NCBI GenBank assembly: GCA_963710375.1
Contig: CAVPZX010000003.1
Span: 256,001 to 320,000 of the forward strand
Direction: 5' to 3'
Length of the DNA: 64,000 bases
DNA from: Nitrospirota bacterium
Lineage (GTDB): Bacteria; Nitrospirota; Thermodesulfovibrionia; Thermodesulfovibrionales; Dissulfurispiraceae
Numbering within the stretch: the stretch's first letter is position 1; every line of letters starts with the position of its first letter. A model generated the notes under the pieces. That model was not told the origin of the DNA and ran no database searches. It saw nothing but the letters and a program-made list of their open reading frames with translations. This document shows, in pieces, positions 5,432 through 64,000 of this stretch. The position numbers and the translations under genes were made by a program.

Positions 5432-5434
5432 TTT

Positions 5435-26261: not shown

Positions 26262-26386
26262 GGGCAATAGGCAATAAAACGTGAATAGTGAAAGGTGAAT
26301 GGTGAATCTAATCGGCTAAAGGCAAAAAGCAAAACAAGATGTCTTTAGTTTTTAACTATTCACCATTCACGTTTCACTATTCACCC
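26262..26386. repeat. Inverted arrays of heptamer tandem repeats (GTGAATA/GTGAAAG vs TATTCAC)
   Basis: gtgaatagtgaaaggtgaatggtgaat ... tattcaccattcacgtttcactattcac. Confidence 0.7.
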
Positions 26387-43299: not shown

Positions 43300-43331
43300 T
43301 TTTGCTTACTACCGGTATGTAAAGACCGTCA

Positions 43332-46039: not shown

Positions 46040-46043
46040 CTGG

Positions 46044-46508
46044 GTGTTTCAGGTGGCCCGCTCAGATTGCCCATCTATCAATAGACAAGGTTTTACGCTC
46101 CTCGAATTGATGATCGTGCTTTTTCTCATTTCGCTCATAATGGGACTCTCGGCGGTTTATTTTTCCAACGCAATGCCGTCAACCAAGCTTAATGCTGCAG
46201 TCAGGGAACTGTCTGCAACGATCCGTTATGCCCGAACACTTGCAATGATCGACGGCAAGCTCCAGACATTAAACATTGACCTCGATGCAAAAAGATACGG
46301 CATAGAAGGGCGCGGGTATAAAGACATCGATTCCGGGATAACAATAATGGCGCTCGATCCTTTTGCAGGAGAGGTGCGCAATGGAACATACCGTCTTATG
46401 TTTCAAGCGTCAGGAGGGGTGCAGGGAGGGACGATTGTCCTGGGCAGCGGGAAAAAGAAAGTCAGTATCGGACTTGATCCGGTTGTAGGATCAGTGGTAG
46501 TGAAATGA
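46044..46508 (+). CDS. gspH: T2SS-1 minor pseudopilin H
   Basis: G|FTLLELMIVL; operon position. Confidence 0.85.
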   Translation: MFQVARSDCPSINRQGFTLLELMIVLFLISLIMGLSAVYFSNAMPSTKLNAAVRELSATIRYARTLAMIDGKLQTLNIDLDAKRYGIEGRGYKDIDSGITIMALDPFAGEVRNGTYRLMFQASGGVQGGTIVLGSGKKKVSIGLDPVVGSVVVK

Positions 46509-47071
46509 ATAATGTAAAGGGCTCGCGAATAAATAGCTTGTGCATTCAGGCGCTCAGATTTAGGTCAGATTTGGCTGATCCGACTGAGCAAAACCGCAGG
46601 CGTAGCAGAGCTACGTTGAGGATTTTGCGATTGAGGATCGGGCAAAGATGGCCTGAATCTGAGATGCATCAATGTGCAAGTTATTTATTCGCGAGCCCAG
46701 AAGGCTTTACGCTTCTTGAAATCCTTGTTGCACTCGCCCTGCTGAGCATAGCCTTACTGGTTATAGTGCAGCTTTTCTCCGCTGACCTGCGAGGCATATC
46801 TGTCTCGGACGATTACGTCGTTGCTGTTGCGACTGCAGAGTCCAGGATGAGGGAACTGCTTGACGATGATAAGCTTTCCGAGAAGAACTTGAGCGAGTAT
46901 ACCGATGATGGATACCGGATAGATACCTCTGTGAAAGAGTCGCTCACGGACAGGACCGAAAACTTACAGGTCAGAATCTTTGATATAGGACTAGCCGTTC
47001 ATTGGAGAAAATGGGGACGGGACAGGTCTGTCACCCTTAGGACCCTGAAAGTAATGAAGAAGGAACTATAA
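46505..47071 (+). CDS. gspI: T2SS-1 minor pseudopilin I with a 60-aa MITE-derived insert in its leader
   Basis: G|FTLLEILVALALL preceded by a 67-aa leader; ATG overlaps the gspH stop. Confidence 0.85.
   Translation: MNNVKGSRINSLCIQALRFRSDLADPTEQNRRRSRATLRILRLRIGQRWPESEMHQCASYLFASPEGFTLLEILVALALLSIALLVIVQLFSADLRGISVSDDYVVAVATAESRMRELLDDDKLSEKNLSEYTDDGYRIDTSVKESLTDRTENLQVRIFDIGLAVHWRKWGRDRSVTLRTLKVMKKEL
46519..46698. mobile_element. MITE-like element, family B, in frame within the gspI leader
   Basis: 180 bp with TIR gggctcgcgaataaata; reverse complement of 21926-22105; no stop codon in the gspI frame. Confidence 0.92.
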
Positions 47072-47716
47072 ATGCTTTCGACAAACCCTAATCGGGAACA
47101 TGGCTTTACGCTCCTTGAGTTGATGATATCCATTACTTTGATCGTGTTTATCCTTCTGATTGCAGGCACGGCCATCCGGCTTGGGTTGCGGTCGGTAGAC
47201 TCCGGAGAAAAGAGGATCGAATCACTCGAAAGATTCAGGGCCTCGCTAAATATCATTGATGCCCAGGTACAATCAGAACTGACGGTGCCGATGCAGGAAA
47301 ACGCCGGGAAGCACATCGTATTTCTGGGTGACGGCGAATCTATGCAATTCCCAAGCAATTTTTCCCTGTGGGGCAATCAGCCGGGATATGTTACCGTGTC
47401 GTATAAGGTGGCGCAGGACCAGTGGGGGAAACAGGACCTGTATGTTGAAGAAAGCGGCATAGGCGTTTCAGGCAAGGGGGAGGTGAAGCTCTTCGAGTTT
47501 TTTGACCGGATTTATTTTGATTATTTCTACAAAGATCCCAAAGAAGAAAAGGGCAGTTGGGTCGAAGAATGGACAACTACCGACGCTGTGCCTGAGAAGA
47601 TCCGTCTGCATCTTGTCAACGGAGAACGGGAAATGTCGTTTATCATTCCTATGAAAATGAGGGACCTCATCGTCAGGGCCGGTGCTGTTGCAGGGGCCAA
47701 TGCAGGGAGCCACTAG
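47072..47716 (+). CDS. gspJ: T2SS-1 minor pseudopilin J
   Basis: G|FTLLELMISI; C-terminal W.EEW....P..IRL. Confidence 0.85.
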   Translation: MLSTNPNREHGFTLLELMISITLIVFILLIAGTAIRLGLRSVDSGEKRIESLERFRASLNIIDAQVQSELTVPMQENAGKHIVFLGDGESMQFPSNFSLWGNQPGYVTVSYKVAQDQWGKQDLYVEESGIGVSGKGEVKLFEFFDRIYFDYFYKDPKEEKGSWVEEWTTTDAVPEKIRLHLVNGEREMSFIIPMKMRDLIVRAGAVAGANAGSH

Positions 47717-48672
47717 TGATAATGAAAGGTTTTTATAGCACGCAAAAAGGCCTGGCGTTATTTGTGGTCTTGTGGGTACTGGCCCTTCTGATGGTCACTG
47801 TACTCTCTTTCTCTTTTGTGACGAGGACAGAAACACATGCAACCCTTGGGTTCAAAGATACGGCGGAAAGGAAGTTCCTGGCCGAGGCCGGTATTGAACG
47901 GGCGATTATCGAGATTCTTTACCGCCAAAAAAATATGGCTAATCCGATAACCCTGGAGGGTCCTGAACCCTGGAAGGCTGACGGTACTGTGTATAGCGGA
48001 CAGTTGGGTGAAGGGTCTTATACAGTAAGCATTGTGGGAGAGGCCGGCAAATTAGATATTAATAAGGCGCCTGAGGTATTATTTAAAAACCTGCTTTTAA
48101 ACGCCGGGGTCAAGGAGGATGAAGCCGATATAATAGCGGACTCTGTAATGGATTGGAAAGACCCCAGTGGCTTGACGCGCCTCCACGGCGCCGGGAGCGA
48201 TTATTATTTGTCGCTGCCGGTCCCCTATAATATTAAGGGAGCTGATTTTGATACGCTCGAGGAGCTTCTGCTTGTGAAGGGAGTGACTCCTGCCTTACTT
48301 TATGGAGACAGCACTAAAAAAGGTATTATCGATTCCCTCACCGTGAATGGGTTGCCGGTAATTAATCTCAATTATGCGCCGAAGGAGGTTTTAATGGCTG
48401 TTCCAGAAATGGCTGCTGATACAGCTGATAATATAATCCAGTTCCGGCACGATCAAACCATACAGAATGTCCAGGAGGCCCTGGTGGGCGCCAATTACCA
48501 GCTGATGGCCCCTTTTATCACTGCAGGGGAAGGGAATGTCTTTACTATAGATTCGGTAGGGCACAAAGGAAACGAAAAAACAGGTTATCCTATCAGGGCA
48601 ACTGTAATGATAGAAAGTGTTAACAAATACAGATATCTGTATTACAAATCCCCAGCATACAAAGAACAATAA
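47716..48672 (+). CDS. gspK: T2SS-1 minor pseudopilin K
   Basis: G|LALFVVLW (no E5), E.GKLDIN, IADSVMDW, EELLLVKG, INLN.A. Confidence 0.9.
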   Translation: MIMKGFYSTQKGLALFVVLWVLALLMVTVLSFSFVTRTETHATLGFKDTAERKFLAEAGIERAIIEILYRQKNMANPITLEGPEPWKADGTVYSGQLGEGSYTVSIVGEAGKLDINKAPEVLFKNLLLNAGVKEDEADIIADSVMDWKDPSGLTRLHGAGSDYYLSLPVPYNIKGADFDTLEELLLVKGVTPALLYGDSTKKGIIDSLTVNGLPVINLNYAPKEVLMAVPEMAADTADNIIQFRHDQTIQNVQEALVGANYQLMAPFITAGEGNVFTIDSVGHKGNEKTGYPIRATVMIESVNKYRYLYYKSPAYKEQ

Positions 48673-48679
48673 GAGAGAA

Positions 48680-50217
48680 ATGGAAGCTATAAGAAAAATA
48701 ACTTCATTTGTCTTTGACACAGCCTCCGGGGTGAAGAAAATTACCATCCCCTTAAGGAATGCGCTTACGTTCAGTGCCGCTGATGAACGTATATCATACA
48801 AGAAAGAGCTTTGCGTAGCCATTGAAAAGACCGGCGTGTCCTTAGCATACGGGACGCGGTTCTTATCATCCCTCTCGGTCAAAGGGATGAGGCATTACCA
48901 TTACTCGTCTGCTGAGCATGCCTACCCTCAGCCAAAAGAAGCGGCATCGTCAGTAGTATTGGCCATTAGCGAATTCGGTGCTGTGGGGGCCGGTATTATT
49001 CTAAGCATTCCCAAATCCTGGGCAATTGTAAGAATCGTTGAATTTCCAGTAACGGTCAAGGAGAATATATCGGATGTCGTTACCTATGAGCTGGACCGGC
49101 TTTTCCCTTTCAGCCCCGAAGAGGCTTTTTATGACTTCATCATAACCGGCGAAACTCCTGATAATATCACTTTGGCCATTGCCGCATCAAAGGCTGATCT
49201 GATCAAATCCTATTGTGCAGCTCTTGCAGATGAGAGACTCAGTGTGGACAGGGTCACTTTAAACCTCACTTCCATAGGGTCATTGTGCCGCTCTCTCCAC
49301 AAAAATAGAGATGCCCTCTTTATCGAAACCGATAGCGATGAATATGAGGGCGCACTGTTCCTTGACACTCCCTGGCAGGGGTTGTGAGCGGCAGGTTTTC
49401 TGCTGATGACGATGCATCAAGGGCCGACATAATTTCGGCTGAGATGAGACCGCTTATCGATACCGCAAAAAGGCGTGATAACGACCCTCGTCTGTTTGCC
49501 CTGCTGCGTGGCTCCCCCGCCTTAAAAGAAAGACTCAGGACATCTCTTGCATTTCCCGTATCGCTCCTTGATGAGATTGATACCGGGCTCGGCCTCAGTT
49601 CCGGGCAAAAGAATGTCCTTTACGCGGCAGCAGGCGGTGTGATGGAATCGTTGCAGCCGGGACACCAAAAGCTGAATCTCCTCTCAAGGGGCCTGCATGA
49701 GAGAGCAAAAACACCTATGGGATTGACAGCCGTGCTTGTGGCGCTTTTAATGGTGTTATGGATAATGTGCGAGCTTGCGCCAATACGGGTTGAAACAAAA
49801 CGACTCAGGGAAATTGAGGGCCAGATAAAAATCCGCAAGAGCGGAATGAAGGATTGGGAAACGCTCAAAAACCAAATAGATGCCATCAACAGTGAGGTTG
49901 AAACAATCAACGGCTTTAAGGAAAACAGGCCGATGACACTGACTATTCTCAAAGAGCTCACTGAAGTACTACCTAGATCGGCGTGGCTGACAAGAGTGAA
50001 CATTGGCCAATCAACGGTCAACATCGAAGGCTATTCAACAAGCTCCGCCTCGGAACTCCTGTCAAGGCTTGAGGCATCAAAACATCTGGGAAAGGCTGAA
50101 TTTGCCTCTCCCACATTCAGGGATGTTCGTATGATGGCAGACCGCTTTAACATAAAAATGGAGATAAGGGGAGCCAAAGAAATGAAAGTGGCGCCGCATA
50201 AAGATGATAAAAAGTAA
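48680..50217 (+). CDS. gspL: T2SS-1 GspL / PilM-PilN-like protein (-1 frameshift at ~49370)
   Basis: FP..VKEN...V.YELDR.FPF in the first ORF; LNLL + TM + PilN-like domain in the second. Adding one C at 49370-49372 joins them (DTPLAGVVSG). Confidence 0.75.
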
Positions 50218-50755
50218 ACTGCTGGTCTTTGCAATTCCACTGATGACGATACTCTTCATTCTTGTAGTGTACCGGTACGGCTACCAGGGAATACATGCAG
50301 AGGTGGCCTCCCTGAAAGATGCCGAGGTATCCAGAACCAAAACGCTCGCGAAATATATGGCTCTTTTTGGGGAAAAACCGGAGATGGAGAAGCAACTGGC
50401 CTCACTGAAAGAGGAACGAAGGGCGGATAACTCAAAGCTTGTAGAAGGCCAGACTCCGTCAATCGCGGCAGCAGCACTACAGGAGACTGTAAACCAAATG
50501 ATTACCGCCCCGGGGGGGACCATCTTAAGCCAGCGGGTAGGGAAGCCTGAGACATTCGGCAAATTCACACTGATAACTATCAGCATGGATATAACACTGC
50601 CCGACGTACGGGCACTGGCAGATATTCTATATACCATCGAGACGCGGACTCCTTACCTCGTTGTAAAAGAAATTGATGTGCGGGTCGCTAACTTTAAAGA
50701 ACCTAAGTCGCTGGCGGTCAAGCTGGACATATCAGCGCTTACAAGCAGGAAATGA
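50204..50755 (+). CDS. gspM: T2SS-1 GspM / PilO-like protein
   Basis: N-terminal TM, AAAALQ, L..ILY.IE...PYL.V; position after gspL. Confidence 0.75.
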   Translation: MIKSKLLVFAIPLMTILFILVVYRYGYQGIHAEVASLKDAEVSRTKTLAKYMALFGEKPEMEKQLASLKEERRADNSKLVEGQTPSIAAAALQETVNQMITAPGGTILSQRVGKPETFGKFTLITISMDITLPDVRALADILYTIETRTPYLVVKEIDVRVANFKEPKSLAVKLDISALTSRK

Positions 50756-51333
50756 TAATGGGCTACCTGATGAAGAGCGTCAATCTGCTTAATATTCTAC
50801 TGGCGGCAGCCGCAGTTGCTGCGGCGCACTATATTGTTTCCCCCGCTATCAATAAGGAGAAAAATTTTTTTCCTCCTGCGGTGAAGACGGCTCCGGTACC
50901 GGCAGCGGCCGAGGAACAGAAACAAAAGGCCGGGAAAGAACCTGCCGCGCCTCCAACCGACTTCATGCTGATCGCGGACCAGAATCTCTTTCATCCCGAG
51001 AGGAAGATCCCTGTTGACAAACCACAGTCTGCGCAGCCTCCGCCAAAGCCGGAACTGGTATTGTTCGGTACATTAATAACCGGTAACACGCGCGTAGCCT
51101 ATGTTGATGACATAAAGTCACCGCTGACCACGCCCGGAAGGGGCAAGCGGATGAGGGTGCTTAAAATAGGAGATATGGTGGGGGATTTTACGCTCAAAGT
51201 GATCGATCCTGATAAGATTATTTTAGTGAGAGGAAGTGAAGTCATGACGGTCGATCTCTCAGATCTTAAAGGGAAGAGACAGAATACGGTGGGAGCGCCT
51301 AACCCTCATGTAAATCCCAATGTACGGCGATAA
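50752..51333 (+). CDS. T2SS-1 accessory bitopic protein (GspC HR / PilP-like, no PDZ)
   Basis: TM, Pro-rich linker, NLFHPER, L.L.GT.I, GD.VG.F.L..I. Confidence 0.6.
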   Translation: MIMGYLMKSVNLLNILLAAAAVAAAHYIVSPAINKEKNFFPPAVKTAPVPAAAEEQKQKAGKEPAAPPTDFMLIADQNLFHPERKIPVDKPQSAQPPPKPELVLFGTLITGNTRVAYVDDIKSPLTTPGRGKRMRVLKIGDMVGDFTLKVIDPDKIILVRGSEVMTVDLSDLKGKRQNTVGAPNPHVNPNVRR

Positions 51334-51344
51334 CAGCTTGACCC

Positions 51345-53069
51345 TTACTTGGAAGGCTCTTTGTTGACGGAGTCACCAGGCTGTTTGATGAACTCATTCA
51401 GCTTCATATCTTTAGTGTCGCCTTTAAGCCTGTCAAGATAATCCGTTGTTACCTTACCCGCTTCCTGCTGATTCTTGATCACATGCGGCGTAAGCAAGAC
51501 AATTATTTCCGTTTTTGTCCTTGTGATATTCCTGGATCCAAAGAGGTATCCCAGTATAGGAATATCCATGAGATACGGTATGCCTGATACGTTTGTTTCC
51601 TTGTTATCCTGTATGAGGCCCCCGATTACAATGGTCTGGCCGTCATTTACCACAACGTTTGTTTGCGCAGCACGCTTTGTAAAGACAAACTGTTGAGTAC
51701 CCAACACAGTTTGTGTATTGGCCTCCGTCACCTCTTGCGACACCTCCAGGCCGACAATTCCGCTCTCATTGATCTGGGGCTTTACTTTCAGTATTGTGCC
51801 GACGTCCTGATACTGGATTGTCAACAGGACGCTGCCGCTCGTGGTACTTGCAGTTACATTCGTCATCTGCGAGGTGGCGATTGGCACCTGACTGCCTATC
51901 TGTATCTTTGCCTCAAGGTTATCAGCCGCAATGATATGTGGAGAGGCCAGTATGGTGACCAGATCATTCGAAGCCATGGTATTAAGCAGCGCCTTCACAT
52001 TGCCTGCAACATCGGTGGCCGCATATGAGAAGCCTGGATATCCCGCCGACAATGGAGTGGCATTCAGCAAATTTGAGTTTTGTCCTATCTGCCCATTAAC
52101 ATCAATAGGTCTTGAAAAAGGCTTGGTTTTGATACTTGTAGTGTTTGACAAGACCCATTCCAGGCCGAATTGAAAATCCTTTGTGAGGGTCACTTCAGCT
52201 ATAAGCACTTCTATCATGACCTGACGAGGGGGTGTGTCGAGTTTTTTTATAGTTTCTTCAATAAACTTATAATCATCCGGCGTAGCCAGAACGACCAGCG
52301 AATTGGTGATCTCATCAGCGTATACTTTGGTCTCTTTAGATACTAAACCATCGGTCCCTGCTGTAAAACCGGCACTCCCGCCTGTTGCAGGCGCTGTCGT
52401 CGAAGCCGGCTGTGGATGCCCGGCAGCGCCAGGGCCCGCAGGCGCCTCGGGTATAAACCTGCCTGGCGCTGCTGGTCCGGCAGCGCCGGAGAATATTGAC
52501 TGCAGGAGTGATGCGATATGTTTCGCCTTCGTGTTTTGCAGAGGATACACAAAAACTTGAGGTGTCGTGCCCGGTATTTCGTTAATGGGAGCAATCCTGT
52601 AAAGTCCTTTATCCTCGACGAAACCGGCGCCGTTCATTTTCAGCAGTACCCCTATAAGCGGAAGCACTTCGTCCCTCGTGACCGGAGTGACTGTTCTGAA
52701 ATTGACCCTCCCTCTAACCTTCGGGTCGATCATGTAGTTCACTTTAAGTATGTCACCAAAAACGGTTTGTATAACATCGAATATATCGGCGTCATCAAAA
52801 TTGAAACTTACGTCAGCTTTTTTTTCAGCTCCCGGCCGCCCGGCAGAAGGTGCGACAGGAGCCACTCTAGGGGGCGGCAGCTGCTCGCGCGATTGAGGTT
52901 GAAAAACGGGTTGGGTCTGGGCTGCAGCTGCAATTTGAGACCCCTGGGTTGTCGTCTCCTCCGCGCGTGAAGGTATCCCCGCTGAGGTAATGGCAACGAC
53001 AGAAAATAAGATACCAATAACTAATTGGATCAAAATTCCGCAACGTCTCTTCAAAAAGGAAACCTCCAC
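51345..53069 (-). CDS. gspD: Secretin GspD (short form), convergent with the T2SS-1 operon
   Basis: FNFDDADI N0 domain, LDTPPRQVMIEV.IAEV, GQTIVIGGLI, GIPYL.DIP.LG.LF. Confidence 0.92.
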   Translation of the reverse strand: MEVSFLKRRCGILIQLVIGILFSVVAITSAGIPSRAEETTTQGSQIAAAAQTQPVFQPQSREQLPPPRVAPVAPSAGRPGAEKKADVSFNFDDADIFDVIQTVFGDILKVNYMIDPKVRGRVNFRTVTPVTRDEVLPLIGVLLKMNGAGFVEDKGLYRIAPINEIPGTTPQVFVYPLQNTKAKHIASLLQSIFSGAAGPAAPGRFIPEAPAGPGAAGHPQPASTTAPATGGSAGFTAGTDGLVSKETKVYADEITNSLVVLATPDDYKFIEETIKKLDTPPRQVMIEVLIAEVTLTKDFQFGLEWVLSNTTSIKTKPFSRPIDVNGQIGQNSNLLNATPLSAGYPGFSYAATDVAGNVKALLNTMASNDLVTILASPHIIAADNLEAKIQIGSQVPIATSQMTNVTASTTSGSVLLTIQYQDVGTILKVKPQINESGIVGLEVSQEVTEANTQTVLGTQQFVFTKRAAQTNVVVNDGQTIVIGGLIQDNKETNVSGIPYLMDIPILGYLFGSRNITRTKTEIIVLLTPHVIKNQQEAGKVTTDYLDRLKGDTKDMKLNEFIKQPGDSVNKEPSK

Positions 53070-53344
53070 TTTATACCTGACTTAAATCGGGGATAAAAAT
53101 GTGCCGCATGCACAGGCAAGTATATCAAAAAAATGCAAAAAAAACATGCTGCGGAAAAGGATCAGTTTATTTTTGCTCTGTATCAATGTGATCTTTTAGT
53201 TCCTGTTGTTCCTCGTAGTCGATAATCATATTAACCGTTGAGGACAAAGCAATTTATAGAAAGGGCTTGACAATGACTTATCTTTTTTTCTATATTCTTT
53301 TTCTACCTGGGGTCCAGTGTCACGGCAAGGGGTATTCTACCGCA

Positions 53345-54253
53345 ATGAAAATAAGACTACATAACCTGTTTCCCGGTCCCGGGCTGCCTAAGGCGCTCAC
53401 GTCCAATTATCCAGGATTACTGACTGTCACTAACTGGCTTATGGGGTTTCTGCTGATATTTGTCGCCCTTATGCTTGTCAGGGACATTGTGGCCCTGTCA
53501 TTCAGAAAGGTGCAGGCGCCTGCGCGGGTCACTTCATATGCGGTCAGGGCCCCGAGGAAAAGCCTTCAGGAATATGCTTCTATTGTGAGGAACAATCCCT
53601 TTGGCGCACAGGGAGGAGAGCTGAAACAGCTTTCTGCTTCGGACGGAGAGTCTGCAGGATCCTACCTGTCCGGGCTCACCCTTGTGGGGACTGTTTCAGG
53701 TCCGCAGAAATATGGCTATGCAATTTTTGTGGACAAGAATAACAATCAGGAAGTATTTAAAATCGGAGATACCGTTCATGCCATGGGGATACTTCAGAGA
53801 GTTGAAAAGGACAAGGTTGTTCTTTTCGCTGTAGGCAGGGCGGTTGAGGTACCGATCATCGATGCTGTTTCCCAGGTTGACAGCGGCGCACCTCAGGGCG
53901 GACCTGCAACCCCTTTTGCCATGAACACCGGTGAAGGCAGCTATATTGTTGACCAGAGAAAGGTCAGGCAGGCGCTGGAACGGCCCGCGCAGATGATGAC
54001 GGATGCCCGGCTTCTGCCGAATGTGGTTAACGGCAAGCAGCAGGGTTTTTCAATAAGTGAAATTAAACCGAACGGCATCTATCAGAGCCTAGGACTCCAG
54101 AACGGCGATGTGCTTTTGCGCATTAATGATTTTAATATTTCGAGTACTGAGAACGCTCTGCAGGCGTTCATGGCATTAAAGGGTATGGACAAGGTGAATC
54201 TCGATATTATCAGGGGCGGAAACAAGATGACCATGAACTATATGATCAGATGA
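53345..54253 (+). CDS. gspC: T2SS-2 GspC with PDZ domain
   Basis: TM, NPFG, LTLVGTV HR domain, GLQNGDVL..IN PDZ. Confidence 0.88.
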   Translation: MKIRLHNLFPGPGLPKALTSNYPGLLTVTNWLMGFLLIFVALMLVRDIVALSFRKVQAPARVTSYAVRAPRKSLQEYASIVRNNPFGAQGGELKQLSASDGESAGSYLSGLTLVGTVSGPQKYGYAIFVDKNNNQEVFKIGDTVHAMGILQRVEKDKVVLFAVGRAVEVPIIDAVSQVDSGAPQGGPATPFAMNTGEGSYIVDQRKVRQALERPAQMMTDARLLPNVVNGKQQGFSISEIKPNGIYQSLGLQNGDVLLRINDFNISSTENALQAFMALKGMDKVNLDIIRGGNKMTMNYMIR

Positions 54254-54786
54254 CGCGAAACAACTTTTTATTGACTTTGGCATTGTTCATAAGCATCTCG
54301 TTTGCCTTTGTCCTGCCTGCCGGGGCTTCCGACAGCGGTTATGAGCTCGCGGCCGGGGCAGGAAAGGGCTTGAACGATCTCAAATCGACTGAGGGAATAA
54401 TCCTTGGGGCCTGGATAACGAGGCTTTCCCCCCTGTTTGAACTGAGGATAGAGCCGAATGTGGAATACATAGCTGCAAGATCCGACCAATCGATGGTGTT
54501 TTACGGTGTGGGCCCTGTTGTAAGGTTTGGCTCTTATGGACAGAGCATCAATCCCTTTTTGGATGCCGGATGTGGAGTGAGCATTGGTTCAAAATCGCAG
54601 ATTTTCGACAGGAATTTTGGAAGAGACTTTTTCTTCAGTCCTACTGCCGGCGCCGGCATCAAGTTCGGCAAGTCGGAAAGCGGAGTCAGCCTTTTTGCAC
54701 GGTGGGTGCATCACTCCAACGCCGGGTTGTTTCCTCCCAATGAGGGATTAGACTCGCTGTATCTGCTCCTGGGCTATAGATTTTAG
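54250..54786 (+). CDS. PagL-like (lipid A 3-O-deacylase family) outer-membrane beta-barrel
   Basis: Signal peptide, PFLDAGCG, HHSNAG...PNEG.D motif, terminal YRF. Confidence 0.75.
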   Translation: MTRNNFLLTLALFISISFAFVLPAGASDSGYELAAGAGKGLNDLKSTEGIILGAWITRLSPLFELRIEPNVEYIAARSDQSMVFYGVGPVVRFGSYGQSINPFLDAGCGVSIGSKSQIFDRNFGRDFFFSPTAGAGIKFGKSESGVSLFARWVHHSNAGLFPPNEGLDSLYLLLGYRF

Positions 54787-54958
54787 GTAGTGGGCCAGTT
54801 TGCTTTTTACTCTGTATCAATTAGCCGTTCAATTCAATCACTGGCCTGTATCGAGCATTATCTGTGGTCGCCACTTCTATAATATGTGGGCTCGGCGTTA
54901 CTCGCCCACTATTGATAACCCAGGTGATTCAGAGCAAAAAGCAAACTGGCCCACTACC
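54786..54958. mobile_element. MITE-like element, family D
   Basis: 29-bp TIR ggtagtgggccagtttgcttttt(a/g)ctctg with 1 mismatch, starting at the upstream TAG stop; a partial similar end at ~53163-53187. Confidence 0.8.
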
Positions 54959-55085
54959 AGATTTTAGATGAAATTGCTTTTTAGATGGGATAATAAATAT
55001 AATTATGGCGCTATGGCTTTTGTTTGTCCAGGGAGTCCACTGATAACAGTTACTGCTGTCAATACTATGCAGAAGGTCAACTAAA

Positions 55086-57269
55086 ATGAAAAAAATGAAG
55101 TCTTTGTTGTCTATTGTCACTATACAGCTGATATTTATTCTTTTTATTTCAGGGCTTTCGTTTGCTGCTCCTGTAAAGGACCAGAACCGGGAACAAAAGG
55201 TCGCTTTTAATTTTGTCGATGTCGACCTCGGCGCATTAACAAAGTTTATCAGTGAAATTACAAAGAAAAATTTTATATTCGACGACAGGGTGAAGGGTAA
55301 GATAACGATAGTCACCCCGGCTAAACTCAATATAGATGATGCGTTTAATTTGTTTGTATCAGTTCTTGAGCTCAAAGGTTTTACAGTTGTGCCTGCCGGT
55401 GTGGACGCGTATAAAATTATTCCTTCAGTTGAGGCAAAACAGAAGGGAATCAGGGTGATGGTTGACAGACAGCCGGTCAATGACAGTTATATTGTACGTC
55501 TTATCAAACTTAAGAATATCCCGCCGGACGATGCTTTGAAGCTACTGTCGCCTGTTGTTTCAAAGGATGGTTATATGTCCGCTTTCGGACCCGGAAACAT
55601 GCTGCTGGTTATCGATTCGGGATCGAACGTAGAAAAGATTCTCTCGATTATCGATACCGTAGACCAACCGAATATGCTTGAAGAGCCCGATATGGTTTTT
55701 CTGAAACACGCGAGCGCAGATGCGGTGGCTCGTATTATTACTGAAGGCATAAGCCGAGCCGCCAGACCGCAGCCCGGCGCAGTTGCCGGCGAGGCGAAGG
55801 CAATAGCTGATCCGAGGCTTAATGCCGTTGTCCTATTTGGTGACAGGGGGACGCGGGAATCGATGAAGTCGCTCATTAGGCTCCTCGACGTGCCGTCCCC
55901 GGAAGCGCAGGGGAGAATAAATGTCTATTTTCTCGAAAATGCGGATGCGGTCGAACTGGCTAAAGTCCTTCAGGACATGCTCAAGGGAGCGCAGGTAACT
56001 CGCCAGGCGCCGGCCGGAGCGCAAGGCGCCCCGGTTGTTCCTTTCGAGGCGGGCGGGGGCATCACCATTACTGCTGACAAAGCCACGAATTCCCTTGTTA
56101 TCGTCGCTTCATATGCTGATTATCAGAACCTGGTTTCTACAATAAAGAAGCTCGACCGCAGGAGGAGACAGGTTTTTGTAGAGGCCATGATCGCGGAGGT
56201 GTCCCTTAACGGACTGCTTCAGCTCGGCACAAACTTCCGCCTCGCTGCACAACAAAACGGGAATCCGGTCTTTATAGGCGGCGTAGGTCAAGTTAGCCAG
56301 ACGACACTCCAGAACATAGTAACCGGGCTGACAGGGCTAACCCTTGGTGGATTGGGCAATTACTATACTATTCCGCAAAGTTTTATTCCCGGGGCAACAG
56401 CTGCTCAGCAGGTGCCGGGCATTGCGGCAATCTTTCAGCTAAGCGATTTCAAGGATGTGGTAAATGTCATTTCTACCCCGCAGATACTTACCTCGGACAA
56501 CAAGGCGGCTGAAATACTCGTTGGCGAGAATGTCCCGTTCATAGCATCCAGAGAACAAAGTATAGCGACCAGCGGTACGGTAATTAATGACATACAGAGA
56601 CAGGATGTTGGAGTAAAGCTCCAGATAACCCCGCAAATTACTGAGGGAGATTACGTCAAGCTCGATATTTATCAGGAAATATCATCAATCGAGCAGGCGA
56701 GTGATACTATTCTGACAAGCGTAGGGCCGACCATTGACAAGCGCTCGACAAAGACCTCTGTTGTTGTCAAAGACGGCGACACTGTGGTCATCGGGGGGTT
56801 GATGCAGGATTCCACGGAGAATTCGATAACAAAGGCCCCCTGGTTTGGAGACATTCCACTTTTGGGCTGGCTTTTCAAAACAAAAAGCGTTACCAAGACA
56901 AAGACGGACTTGCTGGTCTTCATCACCCCTCATCTGCTCAAGAAAGAGGATAGTTTGGCGCAGATAACGAAAGACAAGCGGAATGAATTAATGCTGGGAG
57001 AACAAGAGTTAGGAGAACAAGAAAGCGGCACCAGAGTCACCGGTGAAATCTTTGTGAAGTTTAAGGATGGCGTAACTGCTGAAAAGGCCCTTATGCTGCT
57101 TTCCGAAAAAGGTATGATGGTGACGGGCTATTCAGGGAGCACAAATGTTTACAAGATAAAGATAAAAGAAGGGATGCCTGTAAATGATGCTGTTAAAGAA
57201 CTTTCCGGAATGCCTGATGTAATGAACGCCGCGCCTGACAACGGGGACAACCGGAAACTTCAGAAATGA
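55086..57269 (+). CDS. gspD: T2SS-2 secretin GspD with an extra C-terminal domain
   Basis: FNFVDVDL N0, three N-domains, LDRRRRQVFVEA.I.EV, VVIGGLM, DIPLLGWLFK. Confidence 0.95.
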   Translation: MKKMKSLLSIVTIQLIFILFISGLSFAAPVKDQNREQKVAFNFVDVDLGALTKFISEITKKNFIFDDRVKGKITIVTPAKLNIDDAFNLFVSVLELKGFTVVPAGVDAYKIIPSVEAKQKGIRVMVDRQPVNDSYIVRLIKLKNIPPDDALKLLSPVVSKDGYMSAFGPGNMLLVIDSGSNVEKILSIIDTVDQPNMLEEPDMVFLKHASADAVARIITEGISRAARPQPGAVAGEAKAIADPRLNAVVLFGDRGTRESMKSLIRLLDVPSPEAQGRINVYFLENADAVELAKVLQDMLKGAQVTRQAPAGAQGAPVVPFEAGGGITITADKATNSLVIVASYADYQNLVSTIKKLDRRRRQVFVEAMIAEVSLNGLLQLGTNFRLAAQQNGNPVFIGGVGQVSQTTLQNIVTGLTGLTLGGLGNYYTIPQSFIPGATAAQQVPGIAAIFQLSDFKDVVNVISTPQILTSDNKAAEILVGENVPFIASREQSIATSGTVINDIQRQDVGVKLQITPQITEGDYVKLDIYQEISSIEQASDTILTSVGPTIDKRSTKTSVVVKDGDTVVIGGLMQDSTENSITKAPWFGDIPLLGWLFKTKSVTKTKTDLLVFITPHLLKKEDSLAQITKDKRNELMLGEQELGEQESGTRVTGEIFVKFKDGVTAEKALMLLSEKGMMVTGYSGSTNVYKIKIKEGMPVNDAVKELSGMPDVMNAAPDNGDNRKLQK

Positions 57270-58775
57270 AAACGATTGATGTTGTACGGGACGAGGATAT
57301 TGAACTCGCGTTGATAAAGGAAATACCTCTCTCTTTCGCAAAAGGCAACATGGTCATGCCTCTTAGAAGAGAGAAGGGCAGCCTTGTCGGGGCTGTTGCA
57401 GATGAGAGGGGAATTTTTGCTTTATGCGACATTTCCAGGCTGTATAATCTGAAACCGCTGGCCTTGAGTATTTCGCCTTCTGCCCTTAATGATGCAATCA
57501 ATAAATATTACGGCCAGGCAGGTTCAGCCGAAGACGTTATGGACAACATTGCGGGTGATGACCTTTCGGCTGTAGCGACTGAATTTGAAAAACCGAGGGA
57601 CATCCTTGAACTTACCGAAGACGCCCCTATTATCCGGCTTCTGAATGCCATTTTGCAACAGGCGATCAAAGAGCGTGCAAGCGACATCCATATAGAGCCC
57701 TACGAACGGGAGCTGGATGTGCGTATGAGGGTTGACGGAATACTTCATAGAGTACTCGCCCCTCCCAAGATAATACAGGATGCATTGATAAGCAGGGTGA
57801 AAATCATGGCAAATCTCGATATAGCCGAGAAGCGGCTGCCGCAGGATGGTAGGATCAGGCTCATTGTCGGCGGCAGGGATATCGATATAAGGGTATCGAT
57901 TGTTCCGACCACCTACGGCGAGCGGGCAGTGCTGAGGCTTCTTGACAGAAAGCAGGGCGTTATCGGGTTATGGGAGATGGGTCTAGATGCAAACGATGAA
58001 CGTCGCATGGAGACCATGCTCCAGAGGACAAACGGCATTATACTTGTCACGGGACCAACGGGAAGCGGGAAAACTACAACCCTTTATGCAGCGTTGAACA
58101 GGATCCATACAGAGGCAAAGAATATCATTACAGTTGAGGACCCGGTGGAGTATCAGACTGAAAGGGATCGGCCAGATACATGTCAACCCGCGCGTGGGCC
58201 TTACGTTTGCGTCAGGGCTGAGATCAATTTTAAGGCAGGACCCGGATGTTATCATGCTGGGTGAGATTAGAGATTTCGAGACTGCCGAGGTTGCTATCCA
58301 GGCGTCACTCACCGGTCATCTCGTTCTCAGCACGCTTCACACTAATGACGCCCCTTCCGCCATTGCAAGGCTCATCGATATGGGCGTAGAGCCTTTTCTG
58401 GTTGCCTCGTCACTCGCCGGCGTCCTGGCCCAGAGGCTTGTCCGTGTCATCTGTCCTAACTGTAAAGAACCGTATGCGCCTGCAGAAGAAGAGTCGAAAT
58501 ACATTACCGCGCCGGTGCTTTACCGCGGCAGGGGATGTGACAAATGCAATAATAAGGGGTATATCGGGAGGACAGGCATATTCGAACTCCTTGACGTCAA
58601 CAATTCCATACGTCAGATGATTACAGGGAAGACCGATTCCCAAAGCATCAAGAATGTTGCGGTATCGGGAGGCATGAGAACACTGAGGATGGATGGTTTT
58701 GAAAAAGCTGTCAAAGGCGTTACGTCTATCGAGGAGGTCTTGAGGGTGACGCAAAAAGATTACGTAGAAAGCTAA
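57266..58775 (+). CDS. gspE: T2SS-2 ATPase (+1 frameshift at ~58157, probably a sequencing error)
   Basis: [16 protein letters not shown]. Removing A58157 restores EDPVEYQLKGIGQ, followed by LRQDPD and two CxxC. Confidence 0.93.
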
Positions 58776-58804
58776 ACCCGAGAAAGTCTTCACCGCGGAG
58801 ACCG

Positions 58805-58996
58805 GTGATTCAGACAGTGGACAAGGCTCCTGCGCTCAGACGCTGCGTCCTGACAGTTCCAAAGGCTTGTTCGCTACGGTCGCTAAACTCGCCCTGCGGG
58901 CTCAAACATAGCGACTGTTTAATGCTCTCTTCGCCAGGAACTGTGACCAGGACTCCGCGATTCGCTCCTGAGACTTGTCCACTGTCTGAATTGCGG
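58805..58996. mobile_element. MITE-like element with family-C-type termini, nested in a GAGAC/CTCTGTG repeat
   Basis: Termini gtgattcagacagtggacaag / cttgtccactgtctgaattgc; internal hairpins. Confidence 0.75.
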
Positions 58997-59113
58997 CACT
59001 GAGACGCCGAGACACAGGGATTTTTTAAAAATGTTTTAAAATAGAAAAGTCTTATAACTCTGTGCCTCTGTGGTTTAGTTTTTTTATAGCGCACTTAATG
59101 AATGAGGTGAAGG

Positions 59114-60289
59114 TTGCCTATTTTTCGTTATAGAGGATATAAGCCTGATGGGATTCGGGTATCCGGGACCGTCGAGGCGGATGGGCTTAAGGATGCTGTT
59201 TCAGCTGTCAGGAATCTTGACGTTTTTCCCAAAGAGGTCACCGAATACGTCCATGATGAAAAGAGGTTTTTGTTTGGGAAAAAACATGGCGATGCTCTCC
59301 CGACGGTTGCAAGGCAGCTCTCGACACTGTTGGCATCGGGGGTCCCCCTAGTAGAGGCGCTCAAGACGCTTTCCGAGGAAAGCACCGGATACTGGAAAGG
59401 TCTTCTTATCGATGTCAGGGAGAAAGTTTCTGCCGGGGCCAGTCTTTCACGCGCACTGGAAAGTTACACAGGGATTTTTCATGAATCCTTCATTACCATG
59501 GTATCTGCGGGTGAACAAAGCGGAACGCTTGACAGGGTACTGGACAGACTCGCCGGCTTTCTCGAAAAGCAGGCCTCGATAAAGTCGCAAGTAAAGATAG
59601 CGATGATCTATCCTGTAATGATGTTATTTGTTGGATTTGTTGTTATGTCTTTTCTTTTCACTTTTGTGATACCGAAGATCGTGAAGATATTCGAGGACAC
59701 AAAAAGCGCGCTTCCTTTTATTACCGTGGTCCTCATTGCAATAAGCAACTTCTTCGTGCATTACTGGTGGCTTATCGCCTGTCTTACGGCAGCGCTTGCC
59801 GCGGGTATCAGGAAAGTGTACAGGGAGCGTAGGGATTTAATCGATAAGGCAATGCTCAGGCTGCCGGGCAATGTAGTACAAAGCCTCTATTATACCCGCT
59901 TTTCGAGGACCCTAGGTTTTCTGCTCGAAGGAGGGCTGCCTATGCTGAGGGCGCTTGACCTTTCGGCAAAAGCAGTGGGTAACAGTGTTTATGAAAAAAG
60001 AATCAGGGATGCGGTAAAGAGAGTCGCAGAAGGGGCCAGTCTCTCCTCGTCACTGGAAGGGTTCCCTCCGGTATTGCTGCAGTTGATAGCCACCGGAGAG
60101 AAGAGCGGCAGGATAGTTGAGGTTCTGAATAAGGCTGCCGATTCCTATGAGGAGGTGTTCGGAAGGAGCGTCAAAAAGGCCCTTTCGCTGCTGGAGCCGG
60201 TAATGATTTTGGCAATGGGTTTTATTGTGAGCTTTATTGTACTTGCGGTCCTGCTGCCTATGTTCCAGCTTAATCAGATGGTGAAATAG
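59114..60289 (+). CDS. gspF: T2SS-2 platform protein
   Basis: RQLSTLL.SGVPL, AGEQSG.L, AMIYP, GEKSG, LLEP. Confidence 0.95.
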   Translation: MPIFRYRGYKPDGIRVSGTVEADGLKDAVSAVRNLDVFPKEVTEYVHDEKRFLFGKKHGDALPTVARQLSTLLASGVPLVEALKTLSEESTGYWKGLLIDVREKVSAGASLSRALESYTGIFHESFITMVSAGEQSGTLDRVLDRLAGFLEKQASIKSQVKIAMIYPVMMLFVGFVVMSFLFTFVIPKIVKIFEDTKSALPFITVVLIAISNFFVHYWWLIACLTAALAAGIRKVYRERRDLIDKAMLRLPGNVVQSLYYTRFSRTLGFLLEGGLPMLRALDLSAKAVGNSVYEKRIRDAVKRVAEGASLSSSLEGFPPVLLQLIATGEKSGRIVEVLNKAADSYEEVFGRSVKKALSLLEPVMILAMGFIVSFIVLAVLLPMFQLNQMVK

Positions 60290-60312
60290 AAGAAGGTATG
60301 TAAGGAGGAATT

Positions 60313-60774
60313 ATGAAGGATGGAAAAGAAATAATGCGTAAACCGTTTATCTTTAACTCGGGCTTCACGCTTCTTGAGATCATCGTCGTGGTATTCATTC
60401 TGAGCCTGCTAGTTGCGATTGTCGCACCGAAGATTATGGGGAAAACTGATGACGCAAAGATAGCCCAGGCCAAGGTGCAGATAAGAAATTTTGAGACCGC
60501 CCTCAAAATGTACAAACTCGATAACGGATCTTATCCGACAACCGAGCAGGGACTCGATGCGCTGATTAATAAGCCTGTGACAGGACAGATACCAACTGCG
60601 TACAGGGATGGCGGTTATCTTGAAGAGCACAAAATCCCGATGGATCCCTGGGGCAACCCTTACGTTTACCTCTCGCCCGGCGCACATGGTGATTTTGACA
60701 TTATCAGCTTTGGCGCCGATGGGAAAGAAGGCGGCGAAGGGAAGAATGCGGACATCGCAAATTACAATATGTGA
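60313..60774 (+). CDS. gspG: T2SS-2 major pseudopilin
   Basis: G|FTLLEIIVV, YKLDNG.YPTTEQGL.AL, DPWGNPY. Confidence 0.96.
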   Translation: MKDGKEIMRKPFIFNSGFTLLEIIVVVFILSLLVAIVAPKIMGKTDDAKIAQAKVQIRNFETALKMYKLDNGSYPTTEQGLDALINKPVTGQIPTAYRDGGYLEEHKIPMDPWGNPYVYLSPGAHGDFDIISFGADGKEGGEGKNADIANYNM

Positions 60775-61402
60775 GGGTTTTTCTGCAATTCAGACAGTAC
60801 GGGGTAATTTTTCTTTGCGAGCGATTAGCCCGCTAAGCCAGACCTGCTGTCTATACGGAATATCATCTATGTTCCAGTTATACATGTGGGCTCGGCGTTA
60901 CTCGCCCTTTGCAGATAACCCAGGCGCTCGACTGCAGAAAAACAACCCCGTACTGTCTGAATTGCAGAAAGGTTTTACCCTTCTGGAACTCCTGGTGGTG
61001 ATCTTTCTGGTTTCCCTGCTGATGGCTATTGTCTTTCCGTCCATGTATGGTGCGGAAGGGATAAGTTTGAAGTCTGATGCACAGAGGATAGCATCGGTGT
61101 TGAGGTATCTGAACGACAGCTCTATTACAACAAAAGATCCTTATTCTCTCACGTTCGATTTCGGGGGAAATACCATATCATGGAAAGGTCCTGATGTAGA
61201 GAAGACCGAACAGTTAAGGAGTCTGTCGTCGGTTGAGCTGCCTTCAAAGGGGAAGGTTGGTGAAGGCCAGGTGATCGTATCTTTCGGCCCGCTCGGGATA
61301 CAGGAAAACCTTGTGGTCCATCTGCGGCAGGCAGGGGAGACAATGATGGTAGTTTTCAATCAATTGAGCGGAAGGGCCGCAATAAAAACAGATGACCGGT
61401 GA
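60746..61402 (+). CDS. gspH: T2SS-2 minor pseudopilin H with a 65-codon MITE-derived insert in its leader
   Basis: ATG 60746 overlaps the gspG end (MRTSQITICEGF...); the frame stays open through the element to KG|FTLLELLVV. Confidence 0.8.
   Translation: MRTSQITICEGFSAIQTVRGNFSLRAISPLSQTCCLYGISSMFQLYMWARRYSPFADNPGARLQKNNPVLSELQKGFTLLELLVVIFLVSLLMAIVFPSMYGAEGISLKSDAQRIASVLRYLNDSSITTKDPYSLTFDFGGNTISWKGPDVEKTEQLRSLSSVELPSKGKVGEGQVIVSFGPLGIQENLVVHLRQAGETMMVVFNQLSGRAAIKTDDR
60780..60970. mobile_element. MITE-like element, family C, in frame within the gspH-2 leader
   Basis: 25-bp perfect TIR tttctgcaattcagacagtacgggg; GGTTTT direct repeat at 60776 and 60971 (195 nt apart). Confidence 0.88.
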
Positions 61403-61766
61403 CAGGACAGCTAACGGGTTTACTCTTCTAGAGGTCATGATTGCTCTGGCAATTATCGGAGGCGTACTCCTTACTCTTATCTACTCATTGAATTATCATC
61501 TCGGCATTGCGGGCAGGCACGAAGCGGTTACTATTGCAACGATGCTTGCGAAGGAAAAAATGGTTGATGCTGAATTGTCGCCCTTGAGCACAAGTGGAGA
61601 TTTTGAAGCGCCGTACGAGGCATTTCACTATAAGACTGATGTAACCGAGTCAGAGTTTCCGGGGTTTTCGGAGCTTTCAGTCACAGTTACCGCAGACAAA
61701 GAGAGCGTCACATTTTCAGAATTGATACACAATAACGTCAATGCATCACTTAATAATGCGACATAG
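61392..61766 (+). CDS. gspI: T2SS-2 minor pseudopilin I
   Basis: G|FTLLEVMIALAI. Confidence 0.88.
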   Translation: MTGDRTANGFTLLEVMIALAIIGGVLLTLIYSLNYHLGIAGRHEAVTIATMLAKEKMVDAELSPLSTSGDFEAPYEAFHYKTDVTESEFPGFSELSVTVTADKESVTFSELIHNNVNASLNNAT

Positions 61767-62391
61767 AAACAATCCTGTACTGTCTGAATTGCGGACTCAT
61801 AAGTCCTGTCACGGGTTTACGCTCATAGAGATGCTGCTCGCCATTGCGCTTTTATCCATCGTGCTGGTCGCTCTCTACGGCACTTTTTTCGTATCACAAA
61901 AGGCGATAGAGGGCGCTGACGATACCCTTGTGAGACTTCAGGAAGGCAGGACTGCTCTGGATATTTTACGCCGGGAACTTGCTTCCGCGGTTTTTAGCGG
62001 GAGTAACAACCTGACGCTTTTTACTATGAAGGAAACTGATATATATGATAAAAAGGTTTCGACGCTTTCATTTACCGCATTCTCTCCGTATATACCGGGA
62101 CTCGCGAATATACAATATTATGTGGAAGAAAGGAAGGGAAGGCTGGTCCTCCTGAAAAAAATAAATCCTTACTGGAACATTGACACAAATATGAAGGGCA
62201 CCGAAATTATCGATGATGTCGAAAGATTTACTGTTGAGAGCCTCTATAACGGACAATGGGTAAGCATCTGGGACACAGGAGAGACCGTTAAATTGCCTGA
62301 TGAACTCAGAGTTACGATTACGGTCCGTATTAGAGACAAGCTCATACCCCTTTTTGAGATCATCCGACCCAGGATAGGGAAGGCGATATGA
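61741..62391 (+). CDS. gspJ: T2SS-2 minor pseudopilin J (leader contains a family-C remnant)
   Basis: G|FTLIEMLLAI; W...WD....LP...RVTI. Confidence 0.88.
   Translation: MHHLIMRHRNNPVLSELRTHKSCHGFTLIEMLLAIALLSIVLVALYGTFFVSQKAIEGADDTLVRLQEGRTALDILRRELASAVFSGSNNLTLFTMKETDIYDKKVSTLSFTAFSPYIPGLANIQYYVEERKGRLVLLKKINPYWNIDTNMKGTEIIDDVERFTVESLYNGQWVSIWDTGETVKLPDELRVTITVRIRDKLIPLFEIIRPRIGKAI
61767..61794 (+). repeat. Remnant right end of a family-C element in the gspJ-2 leader
   Basis: aaacaatcctgtactgtctgaattgcgg vs aaacaaccccgtactgtctgaattgcag (60940-60967); both read NNPVLSEL. Confidence 0.75.
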
Positions 62392-63323
62392 GGGCGATGC
62401 ATAGAACTGCACGTAGTCCATTGAGGAGCCGCGCCAATAACTCAGACGGTATGGCCCTTATCATAACGCTGTTTGTCATTGCAATTATAACCACGCTTGT
62501 AGTCGAATTTGCCTACGGCGTTTATGTAAGCACCAATGCATTATATAACTGGCAGTCCTCGCAAAGGCTTTCTTATGTGGCCAAGTCAGCTGTCAGATTT
62601 GCCTCGTGGATCATCTCTGAAAACAGCAGCCAGGTTGCCTATACCTATCCCGGAACTATAGATATTGTCCGCAAGAAGCCTGTGCCAAGTTTTAGCGGGG
62701 ACCTGACGATAAGAATCGAGAATGAAAACATCAAGTTCAATCTGAACACACTCGTTTTTGCCAACGGGTCAGTGAACCGGCCGGCATATAATTCGCTTGT
62801 CAGGATGCTTAATGCCCTGAACCTTGATCCAGCTATCGCCGACCGGATAATCGATTGGACAGGTCCGGGTTCCGGACAGGTTATTTCCGATATTTCCAGC
62901 ACCAGAGCCAAATTGAAACATGCCCCTTTCGACAGTGTTGACGAGCTTCTCTCGGTTCCGGGGATAAGCAGGGCCGTTTATGACAGGCTTGTTCCCTATG
63001 TTACAATATACGGCAGCGGTGTTATCAATATTAACGGCGCCGAGGTTCCGGTGCTCATGTCTCTTTCAGACTCTGTTGACAGGGATATGGCTGAAAGGCT
63101 TGTGCAATACAGGGGAAACATTCCTTTTCAAGACGTTTCCGACATCGTGAAGGTGGCGGGTTTTGAAACGATAGGGGCCTCACTGATGGGAAGCATAACT
63201 GTGAAGGGAGACGTTTTTCGTGTTGTGGCAACGGCGACTGATGGAGGCATCAGGAAGATCGTCGAAAGCGTGCTTCAGGTGTCCGGCAGCAGTCCTGCCG
63301 TCATCTACTGGAAGGAAATTTAA
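62388..63323 (+). CDS. gspK: T2SS-2 minor pseudopilin K
   Basis: G|MALIITL, KFNLN, IADRIIDW, DELL.VPG, ININ.A. Confidence 0.9.
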   Translation: MRAMHRTARSPLRSRANNSDGMALIITLFVIAIITTLVVEFAYGVYVSTNALYNWQSSQRLSYVAKSAVRFASWIISENSSQVAYTYPGTIDIVRKKPVPSFSGDLTIRIENENIKFNLNTLVFANGSVNRPAYNSLVRMLNALNLDPAIADRIIDWTGPGSGQVISDISSTRAKLKHAPFDSVDELLSVPGISRAVYDRLVPYVTIYGSGVININGAEVPVLMSLSDSVDRDMAERLVQYRGNIPFQDVSDIVKVAGFETIGASLMGSITVKGDVFRVVATATDGGIRKIVESVLQVSGSSPAVIYWKEI

Positions 63324-63329
63324 TTTTAT

Positions 63330-64000
63330 ATGGGCATAACACTCTTTTTTGATTTAAAGGACGAACCCCTGCTGTATACGTTCGAAAAGAGCAAGGGAAC
63401 TTATATAAAAAAAGATGTGCTTCGCATATCGTTAAGCCCTGAGTATGAACCCGGGCTTGAGAGGATACCTCATGACATAGAGACATCATATGTGAGCGTG
63501 CCCCTGAACATGCTGAGCTTCCGTACCATTGAACTTCCTTTTTCGGACATGAAAAGGGTAAGGGAGGTGCTTCCTTTTGAACTCGATAATCTCATTCTCG
63601 GTGGCTCAGGGGTTATTGTTTTTGACGCGCGCATCCTGAAGGAGCGCGAGGGCACATATAAATTTCTGGCCGTCTGCATGATGAAGGATTCTCTCAGCAA
63701 ACTGCTGGATGGTTTCAGGCGGAAGGGCATCGATATAAAAACGGTCACATCTATAGATCTGGTTTCTGCGTTTGATGCTTTTTCATCTGAGGACGAGATT
63801 GCGGACCTGCTGATGCACCAGTCTCCAGGGTCTTTGAGTGCTGAAGACCGCATAGCCGTAGCTGCCCATGAAATGGCTGCCCCGGCAATTGACCTAAGGA
63901 GGGGAGAGTTTACCTACAAGGGCGATACCGAAAAGGCGAGGAAATCTTTAAAATACACTCTGGTGTTCGGCGTGCTGCTGATACTGCTCCTTGTTTCGGA
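63330..64000 (+). CDS. gspL: T2SS-2 GspL (truncated by window end)
   Basis: Frame from ATG 63330 reads ...LSFRTIELPFSDMKRVREVLPFELD...IDLRRGEF then a TM start; not in the ORF track because it has no stop. Confidence 0.8.
   Translation, partial: MGITLFFDLKDEPLLYTFEKSKGTYIKKDVLRISLSPEYEPGLERIPHDIETSYVSVPLNMLSFRTIELPFSDMKRVREVLPFELDNLILGGSGVIVFDARILKEREGTYKFLAVCMMKDSLSKLLDGFRRKGIDIKTVTSIDLVSAFDAFSSEDEIADLLMHQSPGSLSAEDRIAVAAHEMAAPAIDLRRGEFTYKGDTEKARKSLKYTLVFGVLLILLLVS

Follow-up and report, generated by a model that had tools for sequence, protein, structure and literature searches.

Palindromic mini-transposons in frame ahead of the prepilin cleavage site in a Nitrospirota bacterium: a probable refuge in cleavable leaders

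How can mobile DNA persist inside conserved secretion genes and leave their products unharmed? The question is raised by a stretch of 64,000 nucleotides (the window, i.e. C3:256001-320000 of a nine-contig, 3.19-Mb Nitrospirota genome, here G000; its sequence is also present in soil metagenome runs of two studies), in which ten pseudopilin genes (gspG, H, I, J and K, each twice) are distributed over two type II secretion clusters. Prepilin peptidase (GspO/PilD) strips everything N-terminal of a Gly-Phe bond, written G/F below. An earlier note on this DNA had claimed that three of the ten genes carry sequence derived from transposable elements of the miniature inverted-repeat type (MITEs) just before that bond, i.e. 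a full family B element in gspI-1, a full family C element in gspH-2 and a family C remnant in gspJ-2, and that every other full-length element is intergenic. Both observations stand, the remaining full-length MITEs of the window (at 14697, 21926, 37710, 54786 and 58805) all lying between genes. We consider it probable that non-autonomous hairpin elements persist in prepilin leaders in this manner, the mature pilin staying unchanged because the peptidase would cut away everything before G/F, so that an insertion would be near-neutral. The haven would be cleavable signal peptides generally, with those of prepilins the most used.

The ATG of gspI-1 (46505..47071, plus strand; recognised by the XpsI/GspI models) overlaps the stop codon of gspH-1, and a reading from that ATG gives a leader of 67 residues before the G/F at 46703-46708. 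Within it lies a full-length family B MITE of 180 bp (46519..46698, plus strand) with an in-frame internal ATG at 46664, between the two copies of a 3-bp duplication (46516-46518 and 46699-46701). Element and duplication together add 183 nt, i.e. 61 codons, and the frame remains open from 46505 to G/F. The corresponding RNA hairpin is calculated at -117.6 kcal/mol (z -13.7). G000 holds 27 near-full family B copies, of which eight adjoin a stop codon; only one of the six frames is ever open, in 11 of the 27, and gspI-1 uses that frame. An intergenic copy at 21926..22105 (minus strand) shares 96% identity with the one in gspI-1. The target duplication of the family is 3 bp and mainly of TNA type, which we take to be an IS5-type trait. 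The terminal inverted repeat arms measure 33 and 35 bp in families B and C, respectively, and neither family has a transposase. A search for an autonomous parent of family B yielded no long end pair in G000 and none evident in five congeners, and 150 other genomes of the order gave no match to the exact end pattern. In many copies of families B and D, a change in one terminal repeat is usually mirrored in the other and the flanks often lengthen the hairpin, both of which suggest templated correction between the arms.

The likely start of gspH-2 (60746..61402, plus strand) lies inside the tail of gspG-2 and would give a 76-residue leader if read from there. This leader holds a full-length family C MITE of 185 bp (60783..60967, plus strand; z -7.3), flanked by a 10-bp duplication at 60773-60782 and 60968-60977 in which 7 of 10 bases are alike. 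The insert therefore amounts to 185 + 10 = 195 nt, i.e. 65 codons, open from the ATG at 60746 to G/F; a compensating extra base was considered and ruled out, as the 10-bp duplication accounts for the frame. The duplicated bases are the -2, -1 and +1 codons, and K-G/F has been rebuilt behind the element (true G/F at 60971-60976), with the first copy of the site left stranded ahead of it at 60773-60782. Four of the 11 family C copies in G000 have a 9-bp duplication; 10 bp is found at gspH-2 and at loci L160, L167 and L181. In gspJ-2 (61756..62391, plus strand), the 20-residue leader read from 61756 to the G/F at 61813 contains a solo right terminal repeat of family C, common to family F (61767..61792, plus strand; 26 bp), which agrees with family C at 25 of its 26 bases (E 7e-6 in a search of the genome). 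Bases 1-117 and 114-185 of family C match the two ends of several 2.0-kb elements in the congener G008, which enclose a 530-aa open reading frame (ORF) scoring 276 bits on NF033551 (IS1182; cut-off 270). Judged by these matches, family C is an internal-deletion derivative of a 2.0-kb IS1182 element that is still whole in G008. One complete copy of this parent (L094:12605-14501) sits directly after gspM-2 of G008, and the congener G005 has a family C MITE near the same place.

We placed 142 MITE copies of seven families in G000, using gene calls from a home-made caller (3,142 genes, 88% coding). In five of the 142 the reading frame runs open from a start ahead of the element into a gene, and none of the copies lies in mature sequence. 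The five read-through genes are gspI-1, gspH-2 and those for an Fn3 lipoprotein, a metal-binding lipoprotein and an L,D-transpeptidase-like protein, i.e. two prepilin leaders and three Sec/lipoprotein signal n-regions, and by eye each MITE precedes the signal-peptide core. Signal-peptide genes make up 422 of 2,851 (~15%) by a rough heuristic. Copies that are open up to a gene with its own downstream start (C5:504390, C6:23627, C2:226593) were scored as intergenic, as was L169; four that overlap a called start (C2:666606, C4:260224, C4:307663, C6:103724) are ambiguous and were kept out of the read-through count. MITE DNA occurs within 75 nt before G/F in 4 of the 21 class III genes tested, versus 2 of 2,651 internal 75-mers of called genes, and one of those two is another signal-peptide insertion. 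The enrichment in class III leaders and the scarcity of in-frame copies in mature coding sequence, both named as tests in the earlier note, are borne out in this genome.

Comparison with congeners, all five of which (5/5 searched) carry families B and C, supplies the empty alleles that had been predicted. G005 is empty at both gspH-2 and gspJ-2, where its gspJ-2 leader has 7 residues, and gspI-1 of G005 and G002 has a short, ATGA-coupled leader. At the three non-pilin sites the congeners are empty, and at the Fn3 site all three conditions occur, i.e. full, eroded and empty. The same few genes have been entered repeatedly and independently: full family B copies are found in gspI-2 of G008 and gspJ-2 of G003, each inserted where the overlapping upstream gene has its stop codon. 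Short in-frame family B remnants occur in gspH-2 of both G008 and G003, with a further remnant in gspI-2 of G003. The remnant in gspH-2 of G008 has no internal ATG and is still in frame from the upstream start. A prepilin gene outside the window has a family B remnant in G000 and G003, a full family B copy in P0026 and a full family C copy in G008, the last again duplicating G/F; this series traces the path from a full element to a frame-keeping remnant. Counted over 54 loci, a top-scoring subset of the family B and C matches, the congeners hold 43 full copies, five of them read through (three in prepilins, one in a Sec signal and one in a mature loop). The family B peptide had 10 matches in a protein collection, seven with a recognisable partner, and all seven lie, by eye, ahead of a signal peptide. 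Contigs of the metagenome runs gave no joint skipping either element, as would mark an empty allele segregating in the same population; these contigs break inside the elements.

As a control within the operon, we measured junctions in 60 cluster stretches from relatives (61 loci), each taken from the stop codon of the upstream gene as far as the first residue that is conserved. Related loci share ancestry, and the junction and leader counts that follow are therefore descriptive, with P values that would overstate the support for our reading. The junctions of gspF-1 span -1 to 6 nt (n=26) and 24 of 26 gspM-1 junctions fall between -14 and -4, i.e. both are nearly invariant, with those of H, I, J and K highly variable. 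Junctions at least 30 nt above baseline number 98/226 for H/I/J/K versus 17/160 for the controls, and a hairpin with no later start codon is present in 20/226 versus 0/160. Junctions of at least 60 nt are free of stops in the pilin frame in 67 of 88 cases, compared with 17 and 10 in the other frames. Repeat or MITE DNA fills part of the shortest possible leader in 29 of 226 minor prepilins, 1 of 43 major ones and 0 of 462 mature 90-mers, across 17 of the 61 loci; most of these repeat-filled leaders hold hairpins of 7- or 8-nt units and not insertion sequence (IS)-derived MITEs. Insertions are missing from the starts of gspF, L, M and N, which overlap their neighbours equally but keep their N-termini on the protein.

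A scan of a genome collection for two heptamer units followed by codons for Gly, Phe and Thr or Ser gave at least 120 matches. Among the matches listed, 39 of 120 were true prepilin motifs versus a baseline of 16 of 295 such sites in G000, a comparison that draws its baseline from a single genome and is confounded by closeness to gene starts, and 36 of the 39 had no start codon after the repeat. Record titles for the heptamer-prepilin matches listed name Nitrospira/Nitrospirota, Verrucomicrobia, Planctomycetota, Patescibacteria, Acidobacteriota, Armatimonadota, Thermodesulfobacteriota, Burkholderiales and others. The leader of a gspH-like gene in a third cluster of G000 (C5:194844, L035) is itself a short heptamer run.

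We propose a series of steps by which such leaders could arise. A hairpin element would land in frame in a short prepilin leader whose start is coupled to the upstream gene. Landing would be aided by the target sequence, as family B takes TNA followed most often by purines and G, and T-AAA-GGN or T-GAA-GGN codons, together with the overlapping stop codon, would supply such a target. The ribosome would then either pass through the hairpin or begin anew at an ATG within it, and PilD would process the resulting leaders of 67 and 76 residues. The genes are consistent with such processing: PF07963, the N-methyl motif, is above cut-off in gspI-1, gspH-2 and gspJ-2, with Gly at -1, Phe at +1, Glu at +5 and the hydrophobic stretch all present, and G000 has a full-length pilD-like prepilin peptidase gene. 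The insertion would be near-neutral, with no function of the peptide needed. Later, as the comparison with congeners shows, deletions that preserve the frame wear such insertions down to remnants of the kind seen in gspJ-2.

Several observations weigh against this reading, at least in its simplest form. A full family C copy lies in frame within a membrane-protein loop of G003 (L167), at least six genes of G000 have short-unit hairpins in frame within mature loops, and pilD itself has an in-frame heptamer-repeat remnant in a loop (L071:1280-1340, minus strand). Among 16 repeat matches in relatives, four are in prepilins and two in Sec/lipoprotein signals (by eye), the rest being mostly in cytoplasmic proteins (HemC-, MnmA- and QueC-like enzymes). 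In the metal-binding lipoprotein the element is followed by a second Met, which the empty alleles have as well, and this makes it a weak case. Starts, signal classes and genes were judged by our own scripts and by eye. The full copies in prepilin leaders are, moreover, too many: two in ~0.65 kb versus 0.19 expected at intergenic density, a rough figure with estimated inputs, and an excess over intergenic density is not predicted by neutrality alone. It could arise from a mild target preference, from slower erosion or from intergenic DNA not being wholly free, with no dedicated targeting. The idea of a safe haven thus keeps the empty alleles, the intact-looking clusters, the pilD gene and the stop-free junctions on its side and loses its exclusivity; strict confinement to prepilins or to cleaved leaders is ruled out by the mature-loop copies, the other signal peptides and an insertion in a pyrC-like gene.

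This last insertion also bears on where translation begins, which the earlier note had placed upstream of the elements. A 182-bp family B copy sits out of frame at codon 4 of the single pyrC-like gene (G000:C3:387043-387224, L331:1244-1425), its length upheld by contigs, and a second 182-bp copy is likewise out of frame at codon 4 of a membrane-protein gene (C8:41937-42118). The pyrC-like gene is out of frame with its upstream start and, if functional, must initiate inside family B. In both cases the downstream gene shares its frame with the element ATG, and family B may donate a start codon to each; survival by restart at the element ATG, with no cleavage involved, thus apparently also happens. 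There would be two routes of survival at an N-terminus, i.e. restart near the element end, which adds about a dozen residues to any protein, or a read-through of 40-65 residues, which in G000 is found only ahead of a cleavage site. For gspI-1, initiation at either 46505 or 46664 is possible and would give an element-derived leader ending at G/F, and the internal ATG means that the full 61-residue element peptide may not be translated.

In a first alternative, the elements would be effectively intergenic or only partly translated, with restart at 46664 in gspI-1 and at 60869 or 60884 in gspH-2, and a short element-derived leader would still be cleaved with no long peptide made. The pyrC-like and membrane-protein insertions, the very stable hairpins and the family B copies that adjoin stop codons all favour it. 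We nevertheless think it improbable, since the full family B copies in prepilin leaders are, three out of three, in the sole orientation and frame that is ever open, since remnants hold the frame from the upstream start, some with no internal ATG (gspH-2 of G008), and since a start codon is wholly lacking inside many of the repeat-filled leaders.

Equally improbable, in our estimate, is that the elements actively target prepilin cleavage codons as an adaptation for protein-level removal by the host peptidase. Two unrelated families have repeatedly entered the same few genes, family C duplicated G/F in both of its prepilin cases (2/2), the commonest bases after the family B target match K/E-G codons, and the leader density exceeds the intergenic one, if roughly. 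However, most copies in G000 (25 of 27 of family B and 10 of 11 of family C) are at other sites, where the flanks are unrelated, the other family C duplications have no GGNTTY consensus, and the purine-G bias is also compatible with contexts of a stop codon plus ribosome-binding site; intergenic DNA is not all neutral, and leader remnants can erode only in steps of three. A bolder form of the idea holds that a widely distributed kind of selfish DNA, of unrelated transposon families and in several phyla, has evolved its length, open frame and target choice for prepilin cleavage codons, with the site rebuilt and the insert excised by the host peptidase, intein-like with no splicing machinery; we regard it as unlikely, if rather less so than the two alternatives above.

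Retention of the insertions for their mRNA hairpins, which would lower or tune the minor pseudopilins relative to the major one, appears very improbable. The hairpins are strong and repeats are commoner in minor genes than in the major gspG, but in close congeners these genes are either empty or hold other elements or worn-down remnants, neither sequence nor position is conserved, and the gspG leaders of some relatives also carry repeats. That decaying clusters simply no longer select against insertions, as the breaks of gspE-2 and gspL-1 in the assembly might suggest, is largely refuted and hardly credible: both single-base breaks (at 58157 and near 49367, respectively) are absent from the contigs of all four metagenome runs compared and are assembly errors, the mature pilins are unbroken and 74-85% identical to their congener counterparts, and the insertions keep frame. 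Both clusters look intact on the evidence of their sequence. The pyrC-like gene has an error of the same type next to it, and another probably splits a radical-SAM-like gene at G000:C4:61754.

The probable refuge ahead of the cleavage site can be set beside known systems. Inteins and self-splicing introns are selfish inserts in conserved genes that are removed after translation or transcription, sparing the host. The likeness lies in a selfish insert in a conserved gene whose removal spares the host; unlike inteins, the long-leader ORFs have no Hint splicing domain, Pfam finding only PF07963 in them, and removal would rely wholly on the host peptidase and on position. Rickettsia palindromic elements (RPE) are described as palindromic, multicopy, non-autonomous elements of ~150-190 bp that are translated in frame in host genes and thought near neutral (PMC2229807, PMC10969869). 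Our elements resemble them by that description (palindromic, multicopy, non-autonomous, in frame and likewise ~150-190 bp). RPE peptides stay in the mature protein, whereas the three inserts here lie before G/F and the long MITE copies are nearly confined to the part expected to be cleaved; a further difference is that family C has an identified IS1182 parent. The words "signal peptide", "pilin" and "leader" do not occur in the available part of PMC10969869. The enterobacterial elements RU-1/ERIC and RU-2/YPAL likewise provide a MITE reading frame fused at an N-terminus, and in the YPO1552 case within a predicted signal peptide (PMC2759123, PMC2229807). The proposal there is that the RU element contributes to making the signal peptide of a new protein, whereas here the elements enter an existing leader of conserved genes, congeners are empty and the argument is one of removal. 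The class III leader is described as cytoplasmic, variable in length and the sole part removed, and very long class III leaders are processed in type IVb pilins and in Streptococcus sanguinis pilins (PMC10191384); leader length varies there as here, and the portion of that source available reports no origin from mobile DNA. No description of mobile repeats within the leaders of prepilins, or of cleaved leaders serving as a refuge, was found in the literature searched, with supplements and most subscription journals outside its coverage. In-frame MITEs (RPE, RU) are already known, one of them inside a predicted signal peptide; what would be new, with good comparative support, is the recurrence of MITEs in prepilin leaders ahead of a host cleavage site.

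Such a refuge would offer a simple rule for where selfish repeats live inside genes, i.e. ahead of a host cleavage site, and would account for the very long, low-complexity prepilin N-termini that are common in environmental genomes. It also calls for caution, as the starts of long-leader prepilin genes are easily mis-called. The natural leader variants of 7, 20, 67 and 76 residues provide a probe of how much leader a prepilin peptidase tolerates, and if targeting were true, a parasite would be turning a host enzyme to its own removal in a new way.

As to the surroundings, cluster 1 (42874..53069) comprises gspG, E, F, H, I, J, K, L, M and N, with gspD on the opposite strand, and cluster 2 (53267..64000, plus strand) comprises gspC, a pagL-like gene and gspD, E, F, G, H, I, J, K and L, extending beyond the window end. 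The pagL-like gene (54250-54786; lipid A deacylase) separates gspC from gspD, and the secretin of cluster 2 (55086-57269) has a fervidolysin-prodomain-like module at its end. An intergenic family D MITE (54786..54958) adjoins the stop codon of the pagL-like gene, and an intergenic family F MITE (58805..58996) lies between gspE-2 and gspF-2, which has retained its own start. An Rfam search of the window returned one tRNA only, and no known RNA family at the elements. Hairpins built from 7-nt units number 80 in G000, and there are many others with units of 6, 8 or 9 nt; the purine-rich arm comes first and most are intergenic (e.g. window positions 26281-26384 and 5321-5432). A glycosylation island (G000:C5:208991-216981, L038 in part) has five genes with in-frame repeat hairpins in mature loops. 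Several short-unit hairpins overlap signal peptides, i.e. those of FliP, of TolB-, LolA- and LptE-like proteins and of outer-membrane lipoproteins, and of their two arms one translates as basic and the other as hydrophobic, resembling a signal peptide.

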